DNA of 64,000 nucleotides from Candidatus Babelota bacterium (lineage in GTDB: Bacteria > Babelota > Babeliae > Babelales > JABDEC01), in contig JABDFA010000001.1 of NCBI GenBank assembly GCA_013286795.1, positions 38,195 to 102,194 of the forward strand, written 5' to 3'. This document shows positions 1,168 through 52,142 of this stretch, piece after piece. Below the pieces are notes generated by a model that had not been told where the DNA came from, made no database searches, and was given only the letters and a program-made list of their open reading frames with translations. The number at the start of each line of letters is the position of its first letter. Within the stretch, counting starts at the first letter, position 1. The translations under genes and the position numbers were made by a program.

Positions 1168-1827
1168 TTACAAGATAATACATTCATGCTTTCTTATAGG
1201 ACGACTCAAAATTTTCCTGATAGTTGGATTTTCTGTAAGATCAATTGGTCTTTTACCTTTTTGGTCTTGCAAAATTGGATTCGCACCAAATCTAAGTAAT
1301 ATTTTAATTATATCAGGATGAACATTTTTTTCTGCTGCCCGATGCAACAATGTGACACCATATTCATTAGAATAATTGATATCAATACCTTTTAATAATA
1401 ACAATGATATTATTTTTTTAAAATTTTCCTTTGTTTCATCATTTATAAAATCAAATTCTTGTTCTTTATCTTCTTTTTCTTCTCTTTCTCCAAATATAGA
1501 AGGATATTTTCCTAAATTTGACATAGTATAACCTAAAGCACAATCACCAAAGCTATCAACTATACGGACATTGGCTCCATTATCAATTAATAATTTAACT
1601 ATTTTATAATTTAAATTTTTACAAGCCATCATTAAAGCTGTGTGTCTATGATTATTTTCATCTATCATAGGAAAATCAACATTGTATCCTGATTCTATTT
1701 GTTTTTTAACTTCAGAAAAATCATTATGCTCCGCCGCTTTAAATAATTCGCTTCCATATGTGCTTTGATAACAAAAAATAAATAAAAATATATAAATATA
1801 TTTTTTCTTTAAAATCTTATTAAACAT
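1168..1827 (-). CDS. Secreted ankyrin-repeat protein ending in a CaaX box (CIIL)
   Basis: The N-terminal leader is MFNKILKKKYIYIFLFIFCYQSTYG. ANK repeats include 'TALMMACKNLNYKIVKLLIDNGANV' and 'TLLHRAAEKNVHPDIIKILLRFGANP'. The C-terminus is 'RKHECIIL*'. Confidence 0.85.
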   Translation of the reverse strand: MFNKILKKKYIYIFLFIFCYQSTYGSELFKAAEHNDFSEVKKQIESGYNVDFPMIDENNHRHTALMMACKNLNYKIVKLLIDNGANVRIVDSFGDCALGYTMSNLGKYPSIFGEREEKEDKEQEFDFINDETKENFKKIISLLLLKGIDINYSNEYGVTLLHRAAEKNVHPDIIKILLRFGANPILQDQKGKRPIDLTENPTIRKILSRPIRKHECIIL

Positions 1828-3818: not shown

Positions 3819-4505
3819 ATGATAATACAAGAACAATCACAAGAAATCTGTTTTCAAATAGATTATAAAGTTCTGGAAAAAAAAGGGATCGTGATAGTAG
3901 GATTGAGTCCAGAAAACAGTTATTTCAAAAAAGAAACTATTCATGAACTTCTTAGTTTTCTGACAAATTTATTTTCTATGCTAAGAATAATGATTCCCGA
4001 TAAGCCTATACTACATACTTATAAAGCTCTTGGATATTCTATTCAAAAAGCCGAAAGAAAAGCTCGATTAAATGGAAATACCTTAAAAAATCATTGTAAT
4101 AATAGCATCAATGAAATATTAAAAATTCAATCTAATAAAGATATAAAAATTATTAATTGGGAACTTGAAATCGAATCTGAAGAAAATTATTTGCACGAAC
4201 TAAAAGCTTTATTTGCATTATATCAAAGCAAAACTTTATTTTATGAAGATGTGCGATCGACTAAATGGCAAGTTATTAAAAAAAATATGAAGGACCATTC
4301 AGACATAGAAAAATCATTAGATGAAGCTGTTATTTACCTGCTGAAAGAATTAGCATTTATTTTAGCTAGTCCACTTATGTTTAAAGTAGAAAATATAGCA
4401 TTTGTATATCATACAAATTGGCCTCCTTTTGAAAATCTTATTGCTGGGAAATATGATGGCAAAATAAGAAAGAATATAGGATTTCTTATTTGTGTAAAAA
4501 AATAA
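3819..4505 (+). CDS. tRNA-dependent cyclodipeptide synthase (CDPS, NYH-type)
   Basis: 228 aa. 'VIVGLSPENSYFK' matches the catalytic-Ser pocket of AlbC/YvmC (GISxxNSxF). 'ALGYSIQKAERKAR', 'YLLKELAFILASP' (Y..E) and 'FVYHTNWP' (YH) are collinear with the remembered AlbC/YvmC sequences. The gene starts 17 nt after the TetR stop. Confidence 0.8.
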   Translation: MIIQEQSQEICFQIDYKVLEKKGIVIVGLSPENSYFKKETIHELLSFLTNLFSMLRIMIPDKPILHTYKALGYSIQKAERKARLNGNTLKNHCNNSINEILKIQSNKDIKIINWELEIESEENYLHELKALFALYQSKTLFYEDVRSTKWQVIKKNMKDHSDIEKSLDEAVIYLLKELAFILASPLMFKVENIAFVYHTNWPPFENLIAGKYDGKIRKNIGFLICVKK

Positions 4506-4625: not shown

Positions 4626-5228
4626 ATGAAATTAAGATTATTTTTATCAGTGGCAATAGCTTTATTAATTGTTCCCACAATCAGCTTATCTATGATTAAA
4701 AAGCATAGAAGCCCACAAGAAAAATTATTTAAAGGTACAAGGTATAATGATTTAAATTTGGTACAAGAAGCTCTAGCAGAAGGAGCAGATGTTAATGCAA
4801 AAAATGACATTGGAAAAACTCCTTTAAATATCATAATCGATCATAACGGTTTTCGGAGTTCCAAAAATTCAGATATCGTATTATTAAAAATTATCGAATT
4901 ATTATTAAAGTCAGGCGCACATGTTAATGAAAAAAATAACTATGGCAACACTCCTCTTTATAGTCTGATTCGATTAAATTATGATCCTAATATTATTGAA
5001 ATGTTATTAAATGCAGGTGCTGATATTAATATTGGAAGCTCATATGAAGAAACTATTGGTGAGACTGCTTTAGATGTAGCAAAAGCAAAAAACAATGAAA
5101 AAATAATTAGGCTTCTTACAAAATGGTTAAAAGAATTAAGAAAAAAAGCTAAAGAAGAAACAGCTGCCTATTTAATACCTGATATTAGTGATATAGTTTG
5201 TGATTATGTTGTTGGCTCAAAAAAGTAA
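4626..5228 (+). CDS. Secreted ankyrin-repeat protein with the conserved C-terminal tail motif
   Basis: RBS AGGAGG lies upstream. The leader is MKLRLFLSVAIALLIVPTISLS. ANK repeats include 'TPLNIIIDHNG..', 'TPLYSLIRLNYDPNIIEMLLNAGADIN'. The tail is 'YLIPDISDIVCDYVVGSKK*'. Confidence 0.85.
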   Translation: MKLRLFLSVAIALLIVPTISLSMIKKHRSPQEKLFKGTRYNDLNLVQEALAEGADVNAKNDIGKTPLNIIIDHNGFRSSKNSDIVLLKIIELLLKSGAHVNEKNNYGNTPLYSLIRLNYDPNIIEMLLNAGADINIGSSYEETIGETALDVAKAKNNEKIIRLLTKWLKELRKKAKEETAAYLIPDISDIVCDYVVGSKK

Positions 5229-11168: not shown

Positions 11169-12401
11169 TTAATTTTTATCATATTCATCAAGAGCATCAT
11201 TTAGAATCCGATTTAATTCTGTCGATGGATTAATTTTAACGATACCTGGTTCTGTAGGTGGATTAGAATATGCTTGATTGCTCCAGATTTTTATTTTTCC
11301 ATCATATGATCCTGATGCAAACGTATTTTCTGATAATGCACACAAGCTGGTAAGACCACTTTCATGGGCCTGAAAAGTTTTTATACATTTGCCGCTTTCT
11401 GTATCCCATATTTTTATGGTTTTGTCATAATATCCAGATATAGATACAACTATCTTAGTAGATAATACACATAAATGTTTTGCATCTGTTTCTAATGTTT
11501 TTTCACATTCACCTGTTTCTAAATTCCATATTTTAATCTTGCAATCATCATATCCTGAAACAAGTTTATTTTTTGATAGTATACATAATGTATGGATAGA
11601 ACTATTGTGATCCTTAAGTGTTTTTACGCATTCATTATTATTTAAGTTCCATATTTTTATTGTTCCATCATGTGATGCTGATGCTAATGAATTTTCGGAT
11701 ATGGCACAAAAAGCTGTAATGGAAGATTCATGCTCCGATAAAGTTTGCTCACATTTACCTGTTTTTAGATTAAATATTTTAATTGAATCTTGCTTGTATA
11801 AGTAATTATAAGGCTTATTTTCATGGAAGCTAAAAACAAGTTTATCAGAATTTAATATACATAATATACATTTACCAATATCATTAAATTCAAAAGTTCT
11901 TTCATGTCTACAATATAGCCAATCCTTTTTTACTAAGTCTAAAAAATCTAAATTCCATATATTTATTGTTTTTTTATGAAATGAATGTCCTGATATTAGA
12001 ATATTTTTTGAAGGCGAACATAAGGTATCAATTCGATTTCCCAAAAATTTGGTACTTATACAATTGTAAGTTCCTAAATCCCATATTTTTATGTATCCAT
12101 TATTTGATACTGCTGCTATTTTATTATCATCTAATTTACATAAGGAATCAACGACTTCAAAGCCACCAAGTTCTCTAGCTAATAATTCTTTGCATTCCCA
12201 TTTATCTTCTATTGGATCATATTCTTGAACTAATCTAGCTAAATCATCAATTAAATGCTGGGAAAGACATTCTTGGCGATATCCGGTGATTTTTTGAACT
12301 AATGCAGAAGATAAGTCTTCTTTTTCTTTTGATTCAGACATTGAGTTTATATTAAAAGTCACTACTGAAAGTAATAAAACTATTTTTAGTATATTATTCA
12401 T
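11169..12401 (-). CDS. Secreted WD40-repeat protein with an N-terminal F-box-like motif
   Basis: About seven repeats end in 'IKIWDL/IKIWNL/INIWNL/IKIFNL/IKIWDT'. The leader is MNNILKIVLLLSVVTFNINS. 'HLIDDLARLVQEYDP' lies upstream of the propeller. Confidence 0.85.
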   Translation of the reverse strand: MNNILKIVLLLSVVTFNINSMSESKEKEDLSSALVQKITGYRQECLSQHLIDDLARLVQEYDPIEDKWECKELLARELGGFEVVDSLCKLDDNKIAAVSNNGYIKIWDLGTYNCISTKFLGNRIDTLCSPSKNILISGHSFHKKTINIWNLDFLDLVKKDWLYCRHERTFEFNDIGKCILCILNSDKLVFSFHENKPYNYLYKQDSIKIFNLKTGKCEQTLSEHESSITAFCAISENSLASASHDGTIKIWNLNNNECVKTLKDHNSSIHTLCILSKNKLVSGYDDCKIKIWNLETGECEKTLETDAKHLCVLSTKIVVSISGYYDKTIKIWDTESGKCIKTFQAHESGLTSLCALSENTFASGSYDGKIKIWSNQAYSNPPTEPGIVKINPSTELNRILNDALDEYDKN

Positions 12402-12579: not shown

Positions 12580-13347
12580 ATGAGATATTTAAAATATTTA
12601 GTTTTTTCATTTATAGTAATTTCTTTTTCACAAACTATCAAACCTTTTGGGGCTGATTTGACTGAAGAAGAACAAATTGAGCTTGCAAAGCTAATGAGCT
12701 TGGAAGCTGAAAGCAAAAGAATTCAGGAAGAATCTAACAAAACAGAAGAAGACGCAGAGCTTAAAAAAGCTATTCAAATGAGTTTGGAATCTCAAGCTAA
12801 AGACAAAAAACATCTTTCTCAAGAAGAGCAAAAAAGGGTTAATGATATGCTTTGGGATGGGGTAAAGGCGAAAAATGCTGCATTGGTTAATAAAGCTTTA
12901 ACATCTGGAGCAAATTTCAATATCCTAATTCAATCTAATATCCCAATTCACTCTAAAATAACACCTTTAATATATTCTTCGAGTGTAGGCTATGAAGATA
13001 TTATAAAAACATTATTAGATGCTGGAGCAGATCCTAATATTAGAGATGATTATGGGAGAACATCTTTAATGTATGCTTCATTGTCTGGTTATGAAAGTGC
13101 AGTAAGGATGTTATTAGAAAACGGCGCTAATCCTAATATTATTGATGATGGTGGTGAAACTGCAGCAGATAAAGCTAAGAAAAACGGCTATAAAGCAATT
13201 GAACAAATATTAAGGGAAGCCCAAAGACAAGCAGTTAAAAAAGAAATTATTAAAAATACACCTTTGATTCCAGAATTTGCTGAAATAATTTCTGAATACG
13301 CTGAATGCCTCAAGCCTGAAAACTCAAAACGTAAGGAAATAAAATGA
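12580..13347 (+). CDS. Secreted protein with tandem UIMs, ankyrin repeats and the conserved C-terminal tail
   Basis: The two UIMs are 'TEEEQIELAKLMSLEAES' and 'TEEDAELKKAIQMSLESQ' (e-e-x-x-x-A-x-x-x-S-x-x-e pattern). ANK repeats include 'TPLIYSSSVGYEDIIKTLLDAGADPN', 'TSLMYASLSGYESAVRMLLENGANPN'. The tail is 'PLIPEFAEIISEYAEC'. Confidence 0.85.
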   Translation: MRYLKYLVFSFIVISFSQTIKPFGADLTEEEQIELAKLMSLEAESKRIQEESNKTEEDAELKKAIQMSLESQAKDKKHLSQEEQKRVNDMLWDGVKAKNAALVNKALTSGANFNILIQSNIPIHSKITPLIYSSSVGYEDIIKTLLDAGADPNIRDDYGRTSLMYASLSGYESAVRMLLENGANPNIIDDGGETAADKAKKNGYKAIEQILREAQRQAVKKEIIKNTPLIPEFAEIISEYAECLKPENSKRKEIK

Positions 13348-14195
13348 AAGTTGTTAAAATATTGTATTTAGGGGTATTTTTTAGTTGCATATTATCTAAT
13401 GCTGCAGAGTTAGAAGTAAAAGAAACAAATGAGCTTGATAGGCTTGAGAATTTTGTTCTATCATTTAATAAACAATTACATATTAATAAGCAGTTATTTA
13501 ATGCTATTTCAAAAGGTTCTTTAGATGATGTTAAAAAATCTTTGGAAAATGGTGCTAGCCTAACATCAATAAATTTATTAAAAGAATACAATACTCCTCT
13601 TTTTGCTGCTATTTATGCACCTATAACTGTCAATAAAATTCTGATAATTGAATTGCTGCTGAAAAAAGGTGCAAATCCAAATGACTCAGATGTAAAAGGT
13701 AAGACACCATTAAGTGCAGCATTGACTTTAAATGAAATTGTAAGAGAAGAGAGTAATCAAATTCCAGCTATAGTAAAACTTTTATTAGATTTTGGTGCTG
13801 ATGTAAATAAACCTTCTGGTGATGGATACACCCCTATTATGGAAGCTAGAAATAGAAGTACGCCTGATTTAATCAATTTATTGATCAAAAATGGAGCTGA
13901 CGTTAATGCTTATGAGGAAGAGGATGCTTCTACTGCTTTAATTCAAGCAGCAGAAAGAGCCGATAATGTAGCAGTAAGAGCTTTGTTATCTGCAGGTGCT
14001 GATATAAATCATAGGGATAATGAAGGAGAAACTGCGTATGAAGTTGCAGATAGACTTTGCAATGCCGAAACTGCTGAAATTATAAAAAGTTGGTCAGAGT
14101 TTATGCAAAAAGGGATAGAAAAAGAACTTTTTGAAATGGGCTATTCAGTTAATGATCTAAATAAAATTATTTCAAGCTATCTGTTTAATCTTTAA
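13344..14195 (+). CDS. Secreted ankyrin-repeat protein
   Basis: The start overlaps the upstream stop (ATGA). ANK repeats include 'TPLSAALTLN..', 'TPIMEARNRSTPDLINLLIKNGADVN', 'TALIQAAERADNVAVRALLSAGADIN'. The tail is 'VNDLNKIISSYLFNL*'. Confidence 0.85.
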   Translation: MKVVKILYLGVFFSCILSNAAELEVKETNELDRLENFVLSFNKQLHINKQLFNAISKGSLDDVKKSLENGASLTSINLLKEYNTPLFAAIYAPITVNKILIIELLLKKGANPNDSDVKGKTPLSAALTLNEIVREESNQIPAIVKLLLDFGADVNKPSGDGYTPIMEARNRSTPDLINLLIKNGADVNAYEEEDASTALIQAAERADNVAVRALLSAGADINHRDNEGETAYEVADRLCNAETAEIIKSWSEFMQKGIEKELFEMGYSVNDLNKIISSYLFNL

Positions 14196-14850: not shown

Positions 14851-15008
14851 AACTATACTAACCTGCAAACATATATTAAGATCCATACTCTTCAGCACAG
14901 TACCAAAAGGACTGCTTTGTAAATTCTAATTGACATTTATATAAAACGCTATAAGCTTAAAAATATAGTGAATAGTTATTTAAATATACTTAATAATAGG
15001 GTGTCTCA

Positions 15009-15956
15009 ATGGAGATCAAAATAATAAAGGTTTTTACAATCTTTCTAGTTTTAGCTTTTTTCAATAATATAAGCAGTATGGGGCCTGGTATTTCTCCTAA
15101 TCAGCTTTTGATTGATAGTGCTGCGACTGGTGATCTTGAAGGCGTTAAAAATGCTTTGGAGCAAGGTGCAGATGTATATTATCAAGGTGGCAAATATAGA
15201 GAGAGTCGTTTCGATGACTTACCGGCAATTTTTTATGCTTGTGAAAGAGGACATTTAAATATTGTTGAATTTTTGGTTAAATCAGGCTTTGATCCTAACT
15301 TTGTTGAAGCTAGAAACTATACCCTTCTGGACTTTGCAATATGGAACAAACATACTAAAATCTTTGAATATTTAATTAAGAAAAACTTAACTAATCGTAC
15401 AAGAATAGTTAGCTATTTTAGTTTTTATGGATCTTATATTCCTCAGCTTGCAGTTTGGCATGGAGTAACTCCTTCTCGTTTAAGATACGAAAAAAACATT
15501 AGAGTAGTTATTCAAGATTTTGATCTAAAATTGAAAAAATGGTTATCTGAAAGAGATAGACAAATCAAAGAACTTTCAACTGTTGGGCGTGATAGTGAAG
15601 AAGGGTTACGCATAATAGAATCTTTGGAAAGTATCAAAAGTACTATATTAAGTATTTTAGATACCCAAGCTATTTTAAAAAAATTTGCATTAAGGCTTGC
15701 AAATCTTGAAAATAAAAGCTTTAAGGACATTGTTAAAAAAGCTAATCAGGTTAAAAAGAATAAGCTTAAAAACAAAATTAATGGATTAGGTATTTTACCT
15801 CATGTTATTGAAGATATGGTTGTTCAATATTCTTTATATCCAGAAAATTTTGAAGATTTCTTTAAGTTGTCAGATTATGAGCTTGATGATCTAGTCAAAA
15901 CCTACTCAGAGGAATTTGAAAAAAAAGAACGTGCTGAATCTTGTTTAATTATGTAA
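15009..15956 (+). CDS. Secreted ankyrin-repeat protein ending in a CaaX box (CLIM)
   Basis: ANK repeats include 'LLIDSAATGDLEGVKNALEQGADV' and 'PAIFYACERGHLNIVEFLVKSGFDPN'. An internal tail-like motif 'ILPHVIEDMVVQYS' is present. The C-terminus is 'RAESCLIM*'. Confidence 0.8.
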   Translation: MEIKIIKVFTIFLVLAFFNNISSMGPGISPNQLLIDSAATGDLEGVKNALEQGADVYYQGGKYRESRFDDLPAIFYACERGHLNIVEFLVKSGFDPNFVEARNYTLLDFAIWNKHTKIFEYLIKKNLTNRTRIVSYFSFYGSYIPQLAVWHGVTPSRLRYEKNIRVVIQDFDLKLKKWLSERDRQIKELSTVGRDSEEGLRIIESLESIKSTILSILDTQAILKKFALRLANLENKSFKDIVKKANQVKKNKLKNKINGLGILPHVIEDMVVQYSLYPENFEDFFKLSDYELDDLVKTYSEEFEKKERAESCLIM

Positions 15957-15975
15957 TAAGTTTCAAGTTTAAACT

Positions 15976-16191: not shown

Positions 16192-17502
16192 ATGTCTTAT
16201 AAACCTGAAGTAATTGAAAATATTAAAAAATCTGCAGTTATTTTAGATGAAAAAGCTTATGATATTTTATTAGAAAAAATTGGGGATGCACAAGTAGTAC
16301 TTTTAGGCGAAGCGACCCATGGGACACATGAATTTTATGAAATTCGAGCTGAGATTACAAAAAAATTAATTTTACAAAAAGATTTTAATGCTATAGCAAT
16401 AGAGGGTGATTGGCCAGATGCTTATAATATAAATAATTATATACATCAAAAGAAATACAAAAATGCTCAGGAAGCTTTAGCTTCATTTGATAGATTTCCA
16501 ACATGGATGTGGAGAAATGTTTCTATATTAAAATTAGTTGAGTGGCTAAAAAATCATAATACAAAATCTAATGACCAAGTTGGCTTTTATGGACTTGATT
16601 TATATAGTTTATATAGATCAATAGATGCCGTAATTTTACATCTGGAAAAAATTGATCCAAAACTAGCACAAGAAGCTAGATATAAATATGCATGTCTAGA
16701 GCAATATCGTTATGATCCACAGGTATATGGATATTCAGTTTTTACAAAACTATCTGAATCATGTGAAAATGAGGTAATTGAAGTATTAAAGAAGCTTGAA
16801 GAACTTGAATGGAGATTTATAAAAGAGAAAAGGGAACAAGTAGATGAAGCTTTTTATATAACTCAAAATGGTAGAGTTGTTAAAAATTCTGAAAGCTATT
16901 ATCGTTATCTTTTTGTAAGTGAAATAAAAAATTGGAATCTCAGAGATTCCCATATGATGGAAACATTAGAAGAACTTATTAATTACTATAAAAAAAATGG
17001 TATTTCAAAGCCAAAAATTATAGTTTGGGCCCACAATTCACATATTGGAAATTCTAAGTTTACGCAAATGAGTAGTACAGGTGAATATAATATTGGCGAG
17101 CTTGTAAAAAATAAATTTGGCAACAATTCTTATAGCTTAGGATTTACAACTTATAATGGAACTGTTTCTGCTGCATCAGATTGGCATAGACCAGTAGAAC
17201 GTAAAATAATTAGAAATGCTTTATCAAATAGTTATGAGGAACTTTTTCATCAAGTTGAAATTCCACAATTTTTGTTAACACTTGAGGATAAGAATTTAGT
17301 TCCAAATGAATTGCTTGAAAGAGCCATTGGGGTTGTGTATGCTCCTCAAACTGAAAGATTAAGCCATTACTTTTATGCATCTTTGGCAAATCAATTTGAT
17401 GCAATAATCCATTGTGATAAAACTACTGCATTAGAGCCATTGGAAAAAAGTTCTGCTTGGATAGAAGGCGAGACTCCTGAAACTTACCCTTCAGGATTAT
17501 GA
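16192..17502 (+). CDS. Erythromycin-esterase-family (Ere/ChaN-like) protein
   Basis: 'VVLLGEATHGTHEFYEIRAEITKKLI..FNAIAIEGDWPDA' and 'IVWAHNSHIG' are characteristic of the family. Confidence 0.8.
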   Translation: MSYKPEVIENIKKSAVILDEKAYDILLEKIGDAQVVLLGEATHGTHEFYEIRAEITKKLILQKDFNAIAIEGDWPDAYNINNYIHQKKYKNAQEALASFDRFPTWMWRNVSILKLVEWLKNHNTKSNDQVGFYGLDLYSLYRSIDAVILHLEKIDPKLAQEARYKYACLEQYRYDPQVYGYSVFTKLSESCENEVIEVLKKLEELEWRFIKEKREQVDEAFYITQNGRVVKNSESYYRYLFVSEIKNWNLRDSHMMETLEELINYYKKNGISKPKIIVWAHNSHIGNSKFTQMSSTGEYNIGELVKNKFGNNSYSLGFTTYNGTVSAASDWHRPVERKIIRNALSNSYEELFHQVEIPQFLLTLEDKNLVPNELLERAIGVVYAPQTERLSHYFYASLANQFDAIIHCDKTTALEPLEKSSAWIEGETPETYPSGL

Positions 17503-43802: not shown

Positions 43803-45056
43803 TTAAATTAAATATTGGGCAACTATATTTGATAGATCTTTTAAAAGGGAAGTTGAATCAGTAATTTTATCTGTAAATTTTTCTCTTGAAATTTTCTTCA
43901 TTGTCTCTGCATTTTCTAGCAACTTGATCATCTTCTCAAACTCTTTTCCGTTATATTTTCTACTACGGGGGTTGATGGCAAATAATGCAGTTTTATATTT
44001 GTCATCAACTATTTTTTTCTCGCTTATAAATCCATTAGATATATATTGAATTATTTCTAAGACAGTATGTCCATCCACATCCTTAAAACCCAAATCTGCT
44101 CCGTGCCATATTAATAATGAAACTATGTCAATTCTATTATGTAAAGCAGCAAGCATTAAAGGGCTTATTTTAGTAGAGTAATCTGTTCTTTGACAAACAC
44201 CTGGATAATTTATATCAGTACCTTTATCTATTAAGAAATCTAATAATTCGCACGTTTCATCTTTATAATTTGAATCATAAAAATCGATTCTGTGTTGATC
44301 AAATAAAATAGCATTAAAAAAAATAGACCTTTCATCGATTATATCATGTATTATTGACTGATCATGATCTATTATGAGTTTTATAATCTTTGGATCCGTT
44401 TCCCGGTCCAATCCTAGAGTTAGAGAATTATCAAATTGATCGATATATTTTGTGTTGGCTCCTTTTTTTAAAGCAATTTCTACGAGTTCCAAATCATTAT
44501 CTTTAATAGTTTCTAGCAAATAATTATTTAAATTTAACTGATTATGTAAAATAGGTAGAATTTTTTCACGATTATATTTTTTGGCAAATTCTATAGCATC
44601 CATAATTTCTTTTTTATGTTTGCATTTTTTTACAAGTAATTGAGCTAATTTTAGATAATTATTTTGTATAGCAATCATTAGGGGAGTTAGATTCTCTTCT
44701 TGAAAAGTTACATCAGAATCTTTTTTAGAGAAACAAAAAGCTAATTGGGATTTGGTGATTTCTGTATTTGCCCCATTTTCTAGTAAGAATTTGCTCATTT
44801 TTATGTCATTGATTGTAGTAGCCCAAGTTAGACAAGTATGCTCATCTTCATCTTTAGAATTGATGTCAGCTCCATTTATTAGTGCTTCCTGCATAGTTTT
44901 TATATCCCCTTCTTTTGCAGCTAAATGTAATTTTTGATTAGGGCATAACACTACTTTATATGCAGTATTAAGCTTTTGTTTTTTTGCTGGACCTTGTTCC
45001 ATCGAATTAACTTGCACAGAAGATACTGAAATAAAAATTAATAATACTTTTTTCAT
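43803..45056 (-). CDS. Secreted ankyrin-repeat protein with the conserved tail
   Basis: There are multiple ANK repeats ('LHLAAKEGDIKTMQEALINGADIN', 'TCLTWATTINDIKMSKFLLENGAN', 'SPLMLAALHNRIDIVSLLIWHGADL'). The tail is 'LLKDLSNIVAQYLI*'. Confidence 0.85.
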   Translation of the reverse strand: MKKVLLIFISVSSVQVNSMEQGPAKKQKLNTAYKVVLCPNQKLHLAAKEGDIKTMQEALINGADINSKDEDEHTCLTWATTINDIKMSKFLLENGANTEITKSQLAFCFSKKDSDVTFQEENLTPLMIAIQNNYLKLAQLLVKKCKHKKEIMDAIEFAKKYNREKILPILHNQLNLNNYLLETIKDNDLELVEIALKKGANTKYIDQFDNSLTLGLDRETDPKIIKLIIDHDQSIIHDIIDERSIFFNAILFDQHRIDFYDSNYKDETCELLDFLIDKGTDINYPGVCQRTDYSTKISPLMLAALHNRIDIVSLLIWHGADLGFKDVDGHTVLEIIQYISNGFISEKKIVDDKYKTALFAINPRSRKYNGKEFEKMIKLLENAETMKKISREKFTDKITDSTSLLKDLSNIVAQYLI

Positions 45057-47551: not shown

Positions 47552-48229
47552 ATGAGAATTAAATTATTTTTATTAATCTATCTAGGATCTATAGGCTCAA
47601 TCTATGGTATGAGCAAAATTGCTAATGAAATGCTTTTGGAGGGGATTGTTATGGGGAATATAGAACTTGTAAAAGAGGCTATAGAAAATGGAGCAGATGT
47701 AAATACCAAAAAAGGCCAAGATACGGCTTTAATGATGGCTGCTCGTAATGATAATGAAGACGTAGCAAGGTTATTATTAGATGCTAAAGCTGACTGTAAT
47801 ATGACCGATGATTACAGTTCAACTCCCTTAATGATTGCAGTGCGTCGTGGCAAAGAAAATTTAGTGAAGCTATTTTTACGTTATGGTGCTGATCCTGATA
47901 TTAAAAGCAGGTATGGCGATGTGGCTTTGTTATTAGCTGCATATGGCTATGGAATTATCGTGAAAATGGAGGATATACTAAAATTATTATTAGATGCAGG
48001 TGCTTCTCTGGATATAATGGACAAGCAAGGTCTAAATGTTTTAGATACAGCAAATAAAAAAAAAGACAAATCTCTTATAGAATTATTAGAAGCTGAATAC
48101 AAAAAAAGAGAAGAAAAAAGACAACAGGTGAATAAAGAGATTGTTGAATCAGGTTATCTATTGCCGGATTTAGCAAGCATAGTTTCAGAATATGCTGTTT
48201 GCGCAAAACAAAAGGGAGGAGGCAAATAA
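47552..48229 (+). CDS. Secreted ankyrin-repeat protein with the conserved tail
   Basis: ATG 47552 gives the leader MRIKLFLLIYLGSIGSIYG. There are 4-5 ANK repeats. The tail is 'YLLPDLASIVSEYAVCAKQKGGGK*'. It is a close paralog of 63278-63919 and of the N-terminus of 54909-56264. Confidence 0.85.
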   Translation: MRIKLFLLIYLGSIGSIYGMSKIANEMLLEGIVMGNIELVKEAIENGADVNTKKGQDTALMMAARNDNEDVARLLLDAKADCNMTDDYSSTPLMIAVRRGKENLVKLFLRYGADPDIKSRYGDVALLLAAYGYGIIVKMEDILKLLLDAGASLDIMDKQGLNVLDTANKKKDKSLIELLEAEYKKREEKRQQVNKEIVESGYLLPDLASIVSEYAVCAKQKGGGK

Positions 48230-51347: not shown

Positions 51348-52142
51348 TTATTTTTTGGCTTTTTTAGCAGCTTTTTTAGCTTTACCTTCAAGTTTATATA
51401 TATGAACTGGTGAACCTTCGGACCAAGTCATAGGTAGTTTATATTCTTTTATATGTTTTAGCCCAAAATCTTCATAGTTATCAGGCAAAGCTTTTAATGT
51501 AATTACAGTTAAACCTGGTTTTAATTTTGAAAATCTTTCTGTTAATTTTGCCATCAATTCTTCAGGATAACAGGTTGAACACATATAAATCACAGTGGCG
51601 TCGCTAATATTTTCTTTGGCTATATCGCCATTGTATAATTCAAATTTTCTGTCTTTAGTTATTAAATTCTTCTTTTCTAAATTTTTTCTTATAGTTTCTG
51701 CGTGGTGATTCCTGGTAGGAGAAAGTTCTATTCCTACAACTTTCTTAAAAGGATAATCCAGATACCCTTGTACAAGAACTTTTCCTGTTCCTGAGCCTAG
51801 ATCATACAAAACGTCTGTTTTTTTAATATTTAAATCATCTAAAACTTTTTTTAATGAATCAAACTTAATTTCTCCATAAACTGGACTGCCGCCAGTTTTT
51901 GTAACCATAGACCGTTCTGTATCACTGATTTGATGTTTAATGTTTTTATACATCTCATCTATTAAATCGGATGTGTTTATTTTCTTGCTTGCAGGTATAT
52001 CAGTTGTTACTTTTGCAGTTTTAGAAAGATTTGGCTTTATAGCGCAATTTTTAGTATTGTCTTTTTTTGCCTTACAATCAATAACATTATTCCATAATAT
52101 TAATGACATCGAAAATAATAAAAATTTTTGCATAACATTCAT
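51348..52142 (-). CDS. Secreted DOT1-like class I SAM methyltransferase with a Lys-rich C-terminal tail
   Basis: 'VYGEIKFDSLKKVLDDLNIKKTDVLYDLGSGTGKVLVQ', 'VGIELSP..HHAET' and 'YNGDI....ISDATVIYMCSTCYPEELMAKLTERFSKLKPG' are collinear with the remembered DOT1L core (YGETSFDL.., [13 protein letters not shown], GDF..., [13 protein letters not shown]...L.ERF..MK.G). The leader is MNVMQKFLLFSMSLILWNNV. The tail is 'GKAKKAAKKAKK*'. Confidence 0.65.
   Translation of the reverse strand: MNVMQKFLLFSMSLILWNNVIDCKAKKDNTKNCAIKPNLSKTAKVTTDIPASKKINTSDLIDEMYKNIKHQISDTERSMVTKTGGSPVYGEIKFDSLKKVLDDLNIKKTDVLYDLGSGTGKVLVQGYLDYPFKKVVGIELSPTRNHHAETIRKNLEKKNLITKDRKFELYNGDIAKENISDATVIYMCSTCYPEELMAKLTERFSKLKPGLTVITLKALPDNYEDFGLKHIKEYKLPMTWSEGSPVHIYKLEGKAKKAAKKAKK

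Follow-up and report, generated by a model that had tools for sequence, protein, structure and literature searches.

A predicted host-read farnesylation signal at the C-terminus of an ankyrin-repeat protein family with Sec signal peptides in Dependentiae

A stretch of 64,000 nucleotides from the Candidatus Babelota contig JABDFA010000001.1 (in the following called the window) encodes P0001, a protein of 315 amino acids with ankyrin repeats (ANK) which terminates in the CaaX box CLIM. Our results make it likely that P0001 is a secreted effector of Dependentiae and that its last four residues would act as a eukaryotic farnesylation signal read by the host. Judged by its DnaK (56459..58333, minus strand), for which all named best relatives are Candidatus Babeliales, Dependentiae or TM6 and the nearest non-self sequence is 84% identical, the window (G+C content ~28%) belongs to the Dependentiae (TM6/Babeliales). 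These bacteria are widespread and mostly uncultured protist parasites, and their ANK proteins with signal peptides are assumed to be effectors but lack functional handles. Cultured representatives are obligate intracellular parasites of protists such as amoebae and flagellates (PMC6561590, PMC4776705). A producer living inside a eukaryotic cell is thereby documented at the level of the phylum and presumed for the present organism.

The P0001 gene begins with an ATG start codon, which is preceded by a Shine-Dalgarno-like AGGGTG, and the C-terminus of its product reads ...EEFEKKERAESCLIM, also given as ...TYSEEFEKKERAESCLIM, with ERAESCLIM as the last residues. Two tandem TAA stop codons follow directly on the 3' side, so that CLIM is the true C-terminus. 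An earlier interpretation of the window from its letters alone (the sequence-only reading) had correctly assigned this end to codons 15942-15953 of the open reading frame (ORF) 15009-15956. Cys312 is located at position -4 of the true C-terminus, and the following residues a1, a2 and X comply with the recognition rules of farnesyltransferase (FTase) or geranylgeranyltransferase I (GGTase-I). The boxes CLIM (human PEX19), CIIM (KRas4A), CVIM (KRas4B) and CSIM (prelamin A) are completely farnesylated by human FTase, and for a reporter with CLIM at its end, cleavage by Rce1 or ZMPSTE24 has been shown (PMC11152559).

A word-index search with P0001 revealed only four full-length homologues with 29-35% identity, three of which end in CVIM, CIIM and CLIM. 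An exhaustive phmmer search with residues 171-315 against 1.84e9 representatives retrieved 15 proteins. One of these was spurious, namely P0138 (2457 aa), which was considered as a eukaryotic source of the C-terminal module and rejected, its score being the sum of 30 repeats of ~2 bits each. The remaining 14 proteins and a further two which came from the word-index search constitute a family of 16 members having in common a private C-terminal module with the consensus ..NLKNKSxKDIVKKVNQ..LPxVLExxVxxYxLYPExxExFFxLSxxxIDELIxxYxEEFE. Ten of the 16 terminate in C-a-a-M, with CLIM occurring three times, CIIM twice and CVIM, CSIM, CSVM, CIVM and CLVM once each, and six are devoid of CaaX. In columns anchored at the C-terminus of the CaaM members, the entropy is 0 bits for both Cys and Met, 1.85 bits for a1 (L/I/S/V) and 0.88 bits for a2 (exclusively I or V), and it ranges from 1.4 to 2.9 bits at the 16 positions before the box. 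The linker preceding the Cys varies from ~6 to 30 residues across the family, and pairwise identities among the CaaM members are 22-49% except for a single pair with 79%. CaaX is kept in the homologues while its flanks drift, and the maintenance of CaaM despite a divergence to 22-49% identity argues for selection on the motif. On the basis of these alignments, the C-terminal CaaM is not the product of chance, and its tolerant a1, aliphatic a2 and enzyme-selecting X match the pattern expected of FTase recognition. The proposal of the sequence-only reading that CaaM is a FTase signal exploiting host prenylation gains support from this conservation in ten of 16 proteins, from CLIM being a proven substrate (PMC11152559) and from the affiliation with a phylum of protist parasites.

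Sec signal peptides were found family-wide, and an N-terminus equivalent to that of P0001 is kept across the members. For P0137 an apparent lack of the signal peptide was corrected by an upstream GTG start, which restores MKFIKFLSVLSFLYFFNSNC. A metagenome scan with the C-terminal module yielded only two contigs, both already known, and a search of viral contigs for relatives of the P0001 family gave none; exact-protein matches for P0001 and P0004 are not on record.

The N-terminus of P0001 is arranged in n, h and c regions like a Sec signal peptide, its hydropathy reaches a maximum of 2.98 over residues 8-18, and cleavage of this peptide is predicted. Pfam identified P0001 as an ankyrin-repeat protein with scores above the gathering cutoffs (Ank_2, 44.3 bits, cutoff 27.3; Ank_4, 39.5 bits, cutoff 22.7) and detected nothing beyond the ankyrin repeats, and NCBIfam returned 0 families. 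An AlphaFold2 (AF2) model was built with an alignment of 16 sequences and replaces an earlier run with five sequences, in which the C-terminal part had a predicted local distance difference test score (pLDDT) below 50. The new model has a mean pLDDT of 83.9 and a predicted template modelling score of 0.71. It comprises an ANK domain at residues 30-125, with repeat helices at pLDDT 87-98 and lower values in the inter-helix loops, followed by long helices at 164-192, 197-231 and 238-260 (mostly pLDDT 85-97), a short helix at 265-274 and a last helix at 289-313. The fold is confident up to residue ~300, and the end block has a pLDDT of 47; such a low-confidence end block is compatible with an exposed CaaX box in the modelled protein. 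Since a Foldseek search of the PDB with the model matched ANK repeat proteins only, mostly DARPins, and a PDB sequence search with the C-terminal module was without match, the helical module can be regarded as uncharacterised.

The genes of the family are often arranged as tandem paralogues (Table 1), and P0137, which ends in CIIM, is encoded ~10 kb from the four-gene array on contig Ga0207097_1023. Of the seven family genes that lack CaaX, four end instead in a basic KR(K/R)KL(D/E)N patch, three of these four in one tandem array; P0136, which ends ..KPKRRRLDNVVS, is among the members with such a basic patch. We take these tails to resemble monopartite and c-Myc-type nuclear localisation signals (NLS). 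The occurrence of either a lipid tag or an NLS-like tag on one scaffold would be hard to explain unless the site of action lies inside a eukaryotic cell. From their sequences, the two kinds of ends suggest alternative host targeting of one scaffold, to membranes by CaaX and to the nucleus by the basic tails, and the C-terminal tail may be an exchangeable host address label. In a wider and still tentative form, to which we give somewhat less than even weight, this would amount to a modular system consisting of a tandem ANK-helical scaffold, export by Sec and a type II secretion system (T2SS), and swappable tags, C-a-a-M for membranes and c-Myc-like KR(K/R)KL(D/E)N for the nucleus. If so, prenylation mimicry would have arisen independently in a deep-branching phylum without delivery systems of the type III (T3SS) or type IV (T4SS) kind. 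As a separate observation, the CSVM and CSIM paralogues of locus L083 have an identical stretch of 12 nt behind their stop codons (TTTTAGGGGATT; 2178-2189 and 2953-2964), which suggests a duplication or gene conversion reaching past the stop codon.

In a phmmer scan with an ANK consensus, the window gave 11 ANK ORFs, close to the "about a dozen" counted by the sequence-only reading; the N-termini of all 11 are hydrophobic and similar. The two independent CaaX ends of that reading were also recovered: a canonical CaaX box is present in two of the 11, namely CLIM of P0001 and CIIL of an unrelated ANK protein with a signal peptide (1168..1827, minus strand). In the latter, a polybasic stretch precedes a box of the GGTase-I type, a combination which is typical of Rho and Rap proteins. 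The tetrapeptide CIIL is completely geranylgeranylated in reporter assays (PMC11152559). Homologue searches with this protein gave generic ANK matches only and none that is close, so that the case for CIIL is made by the motif; a weak ANK relative with 24% identity in locus L087 carries no CaaX. The further suggestion that CaaX is used systematically across the ANK proteins does not follow from these data, CaaX being limited to the P0001 family and the CIIL singleton. Across ~135 kb of Dependentiae sequence, in which the additional loci had been chosen for carrying the family, every CaaX end except CIIL falls within the P0001 family.

In the window, the motif (L/I)(L/I)Px(L/I/F)xxI(I/V)xxY(L/A/V) forms the extreme C-terminus of six further ANK ORFs, all of which encode signal-peptide proteins; five were found by the strict pattern and one by eye. 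The ANK ORFs L001 4681-5232 and L081 7745-8392 (minus strand) carry the same terminal tail motif. In P0001 this motif is internal, as the sequence-only reading had recognised (ILPHVIEDMVVQY, residues 262-274, coinciding with the short helix of the AF2 model), and it is internal in the whole P0001 family as well. The strict pattern occurs in five of 65 window ORFs compared to 0.035 in shuffles and one of 851 control ORFs, a comparison which is partly circular as the pattern was drawn from the same tails. LPxLxxIVxxY resembles the first F-box helix (LPxEIxxxIL), a likeness without support in Pfam: an F-box or PRANC identity of the tail motif was rejected, as Pfam at E <= 10 gave no match for the module or the six ANK tails. 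The ANK protein encoded at 12580-13347 (plus strand) also has a pair of UIM-like repeats, EEQIELAKLMSLEAE and DAELKKAIQMSLESQ, close to its N-terminus (Pfam UIM E = 0.006, below cutoff), which provide a hint of ubiquitin binding.

Based on these features, a sequence of events can be proposed for P0001. The N-terminal Sec signal peptide would carry P0001 through the inner membrane of the bacterium, and the T2SS, outer-membrane vesicles or cell lysis might then release it into the host cytosol. There, as deduced from the motif and the published assays on CLIM, host FTase would farnesylate Cys312, after which Rce1 or ZMPSTE24 would remove -LIM and ICMT would methylate the new C-terminus at the endoplasmic reticulum (ER). 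Through the lipid tail, the ANK domain and the helical module could be held at host endomembranes or at the bacterium-containing compartment, on the cytosolic face, with the ANK repeats binding a host partner. Regarding export, Chromulinavorax has 98 ANK proteins, 78% of them with signal peptides, which are regarded as secreted effectors (PMC6561590), and the TM6 core includes a T2SS with two gspD genes (PMC4776705). Genes for a secretin, a prepilin peptidase and pilins are present on contigs of the family. These contigs are low in G+C (28-31%) and harbor bacterial genes, including those for ribosomal proteins, PheT, LspA, enolase, AspRS and UvrC.

Several points weigh against P0001 being a host-farnesylated effector. 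The family is small and was seen only on metagenomic contigs, and six of its 16 members have no CaaX. A Sec signal peptide takes a protein only as far as the periplasm, leaving the outer membrane and a vacuolar membrane to be crossed. The tail of P0001 contains no second membrane signal, that is neither a polybasic stretch nor a palmitoylatable Cys, and the farnesyl group alone would therefore give weak binding of the endomembrane type, with specificity coming from the protein moiety. Finally, farnesylation, secretion and host delivery of P0001 are predictions from sequence, as for any protein of Dependentiae.

Different explanations of the CLIM end have to be weighed against this. That it arose by chance in an AT-rich genome, where codons for Leu, Ile and Met are common, and has no function is barely conceivable. 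The low G+C content of the window and the share of AVILMF residues in its proteins (37%) would favor such an origin, and Cys occurs at -4 by chance elsewhere, in CLNK of a GT10 protein and CVKK of a cyclodipeptide synthase. Neither was accepted as CaaX, as Lys is non-canonical at X and the Cys of CVKK is not conserved: the synthase ends in ICVKK and its 58%-identical homologue in L087 in VIVIK, which provides a built-in control. From the amino-acid composition of the window, the probability of a canonical CaaX is 0.00108 per protein, which predicts 0.069 such ends among 64 ORFs compared to the two observed (P(>=2) = 2e-3); for the 11 ANK ORFs, P(>=2) is 6e-5. The background consisted of loci from unrelated bacteria and archaea (~1.02 Mb), originating from a contig scan by full-length alignment (75 loci, all generic ANK matches from unrelated taxa). 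These loci contain 787 ORFs with a length of 100 aa or more, of which none ends in a canonical CaaX and seven have Cys at -4; two apparent CaaX ends in the count belong to the family locus L083 and were left out. The composition and control figures are post hoc and suggestive, and the decisive evidence is comparative, Cys and Met being invariant in ten relatives at 22-49% identity next to an unconstrained linker. Gene conversion as a chance source of the ten CaaM tails is contradicted by their differing DNA and linkers.

A conserved CxxM might instead serve the bacterium itself, for sorting or processing in the periplasm or at the outer membrane, as a metal or disulfide site, or as the substrate of a bacterial CPBP/Rce1-like protease, and never meet host prenyltransferases. 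The Sec signal peptide, which puts P0001 outside the bacterial cytoplasm, and the lack of an evident dedicated host-injection system are in line with this, and CPBP-family (CaaX-protease-like) membrane proteases are common in bacteria. We nevertheless consider a bacterial role decidedly unlikely, since a free a1, I/V at a2 and Met at X fit the FTase rules exactly, the exchange of CaaX for an NLS-like tail in paralogues would be meaningless in bacteria, and secreted proteins encoded nearby have RING, DOT1 and UIM domains, which work in eukaryotic cells. Moreover, we know of no bacterial sorting system which reads a C-a-a-M end of four residues. The tail could also be without function and left over from a eukaryotic CaaX gene that was recently taken from the host, given that ANK repeats and CaaX boxes are eukaryote-like and that the Legionella Pel genes have been suggested to come from protists by horizontal transfer (PMC13081727). 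This is highly improbable in view of the lack of a eukaryotic homologue of the C-terminal module among the 1.84e9 representatives (P0138 being a repeat artefact), the location of all retrieved family loci on low-GC contigs with bacterial genes, the bacterial signal peptides of the members and the retention of the motif at 22-49% identity, which requires selection. A further variant, in which the host does use the motif and attaches geranylgeranyl by GGTase-I or a host-dependent mixture of lipids, is unlikely. In the absence of FTase, GGTase-I serves as the alternate prenylating enzyme for CaaM sequences including CLIM, CIIM and CVIM, and CLIM is ~50% modified by human GGTase-I; however, modification by FTase is complete and alternate geranylgeranylation occurs mainly on FTase ablation (PMC11152559). 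In addition, Met is invariant at X, where a dedicated GGTase-I substrate would have Leu. Farnesylation by the host is the explanation of CLIM that we prefer.

Table 1. Features of the P0001 gene, of further ANK genes in the window and of family loci on other contigs. Positions are those of the window unless a locus is named.
Feature	Position	Strand	Basis or remark
P0001 gene (signal peptide / ANK / helical module / CaaX)	15009..15956	+	ORF translation
Upstream element ATTCTAATTGACATTT, perfect TTGACA (-35-like) hexamer inside	14923..14938	+	71 nt 5' of start codon
Predicted Sec signal peptide, aa 1-23 (MEIKIIK / VFTIFLVLAFF / NNISS)	15009..15077	+	hydropathy
Ankyrin-repeat domain, aa 36-126	15114..15386	+	Pfam Ank_2 2.7e-11
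Region of three long helices, aa 164-260	15498..15788	+	AF2 model
Family-specific C-terminal module, aa 222-305 (..NLxNKSxKDIVKKxNQ..LPxVxExxVxxYxLYPExxExFFxLSxxxxDxLxxxYxEEFE)	15672..15923	+	without Pfam, NCBIfam or PDB match
ANK tail motif ILPHVIEDMVVQY in internal position, aa 262-274	15792..15830	+	pattern match; predicted helix 265-274
Short charged linker KERAES, aa 306-311	15924..15941	+	length and sequence vary across family
CaaX box C312-L-I-M315, X = Met, FTase type	15942..15953	+	codons TGT TTA ATT ATG
Tandem TAA TAA stops	15954..15959	+	sequence read
Unrelated signal-peptide ANK protein, polybasic stretch and CIIL (..RKILSRPIRKHECIIL), GGTase-I type	1168..1827	-	CIIL codons 1171-1182
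ANK ORF with terminal tail motif	4626-5228	+	
ANK ORF with terminal tail motif	12580-13347	+	
ANK ORF with terminal tail motif	13344-14195	+	
ANK ORF with terminal tail motif	43803-45056	-	
ANK ORF with terminal tail motif	47552-48229	+	
ANK ORF with terminal tail motif	63278-63919	-	
Four-gene array, contig Ga0207097_1023 (L001/L085)	paralogues with NLS-like tails, L001 7702-10915		ends ..KKRKLENIES, ..EKRKLENIES, ..KSKRRKLDNNDHQNL (KRRKLDN), ..CLIM
Family genes, L081			CVIM and CLIM genes, tandem
Family genes, L083			CSVM and CSIM genes, tandem
Family gene, L084			CIVM gene adjoins gene with tail ending LYLCL

Upstream of P0001, the 16-mer ATTCTAATTGACATTT is identical to L085 8368-8383, located 72 nt 5' of the GTG start of P0137, and the spacer is otherwise divergent and AT-rich; from this sequence identity, the 16-mer probably represents a promoter or regulatory element that has been conserved. 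Scans of the window for tRNA genes, Rfam families and terminators gave nothing relevant. Directly downstream of P0001, an erythromycin-esterase family protein is encoded (PF05139, 2.9e-118; 16192-17502, plus strand).

Other genes of the window encode signal-peptide proteins with eukaryote-type domains. The protein at 54165-54902 (plus strand) combines leucine-rich repeats with a C-terminal RING-H2 domain (zf-RING_2, 3.8e-7) and is a candidate eukaryote-type E3 ubiquitin ligase effector. That at 51348-52142 (minus strand) has a domain resembling DOT1 histone methyltransferases (PF08123, 8e-21) and is rich in lysine at its C-terminus (KLEGKAKKAAKKAKK), features which make a nucleus-targeted nucleomodulin possible. 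WD40 beta-propeller proteins with signal peptides are encoded at 11169-12401 (minus strand) of the window and at L001 2069-4510, and in this relative the WD40 genes adjoin ANK arrays and the secretin gene. Together with the UIM-like protein described above, the RING-H2/leucine-rich repeat, DOT1-like and WD40 proteins point to Sec-exported proteins that reach the host.

A cluster of ~25 kb (~19060-43708) comprises genes for glycosylation and methylation enzymes, nearly all with an N-terminal hydrophobic signal or anchor. The glycosyltransferases include GT2, fucosyltransferase-like GT10 and GT11, GT47/exostosin/RXYLT1-like and TcdA-like DXD proteins, and they are accompanied by TylF and Methyltransf_24 methyltransferases, a NAD epimerase and a DegT aminotransferase. 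Of these families, several are of eukaryote or Golgi type. The cyclodipeptide synthase is encoded at 3819-4505 (plus strand; Pfam CDPS, 1.5e-30), with its homologue at L087 2861-3544 on another Dependentiae contig, and represents a secondary-metabolite capacity which is unusual for the reduced genome of a parasite.

In the paper collection searched, no article connects Dependentiae with CaaX, prenylation or farnesylation. A CaaX effector is apparently unreported for this phylum, the additional features being export of the Sec type and the swapping of tags among tandem paralogues. If our interpretation of P0001 is true, Sec-exported proteins of Dependentiae reach the host cytosol, and paralogues may be retargeted by the exchange of short C-terminal tags. 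The conserved and validated tetrapeptide provides a concrete and cheaply testable prediction of host lipidation and membrane targeting.

A close parallel is AnkB of Legionella pneumophila, an F-box and ANK-repeat effector of an amoeba parasite, in which a C-terminal CaaX is farnesylated by host FTase and processed by Rce1 and ICMT and which is thereby tethered at a host membrane's cytosolic face (PMC2916131). A natural AnkB variant has its CaaX replaced by a di-lysine ER signal (PMC5506055), which parallels the CaaX and NLS-like tails in the P0001 family. In contrast, AnkB has no homology to P0001 beyond generic ANK repeats, and P0001 has no NCBIfam match; Pfam identified ANK repeats only, and no F-box was found in the C-terminal module at E <= 10. 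AnkB is delivered by the Dot/Icm T4SS, lacks a Sec signal peptide and ends in CVLC, whereas P0001 has a Sec signal peptide and CLIM and comes from a different phylum. The Legionella effectors PelA, C, D, E, H, I and K have a host-prenylated CaaX which is needed for localisation to membranes and the vacuole (PMC13081727). They are similar to P0001 in that the C-terminal CaaX is the sole common feature of unrelated scaffolds, but they are T4SS-dependent, Gammaproteobacterial and without homology to P0001, whose CaaX is conserved in a multi-gene family in tandem arrays.

Among eukaryotic CaaM proteins, the end of PEX19 (CLIM) equals that of P0001, P0005 and P0134, KRas4B (CVIM) that of P0002, KRas4A (CIIM) that of P0004 and P0137, and prelamin A (CSIM) that of P0135. 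There is no homology beyond these four residues, and PEX19, the KRas4 proteins and prelamin A lack a signal peptide and are synthesised in the cytosol. SifA of Salmonella, a T3SS effector, has a host-prenylated Cys-rich end, CLCCFL, which is geranylgeranylated and S-acylated, and contains no ANK repeats. It is similar to P0001 as a bacterial effector with a host-prenylated C-terminal motif. Poxvirus ANK/PRANC proteins likewise combine ANK repeats at the N-terminus with a short, conserved helix motif at the C-terminus. Neither a PRANC nor an F-box-like C-terminal domain was detected in the module or the six tails with Pfam at E <= 10, so that a place of P0001 in this group has no support. By analogy, P0001 probably works like AnkB and the Pel effectors without being homologous to them, and if this is true, host-prenylation mimicry, documented mainly in Legionella and Salmonella, extends to an unrelated phylum.

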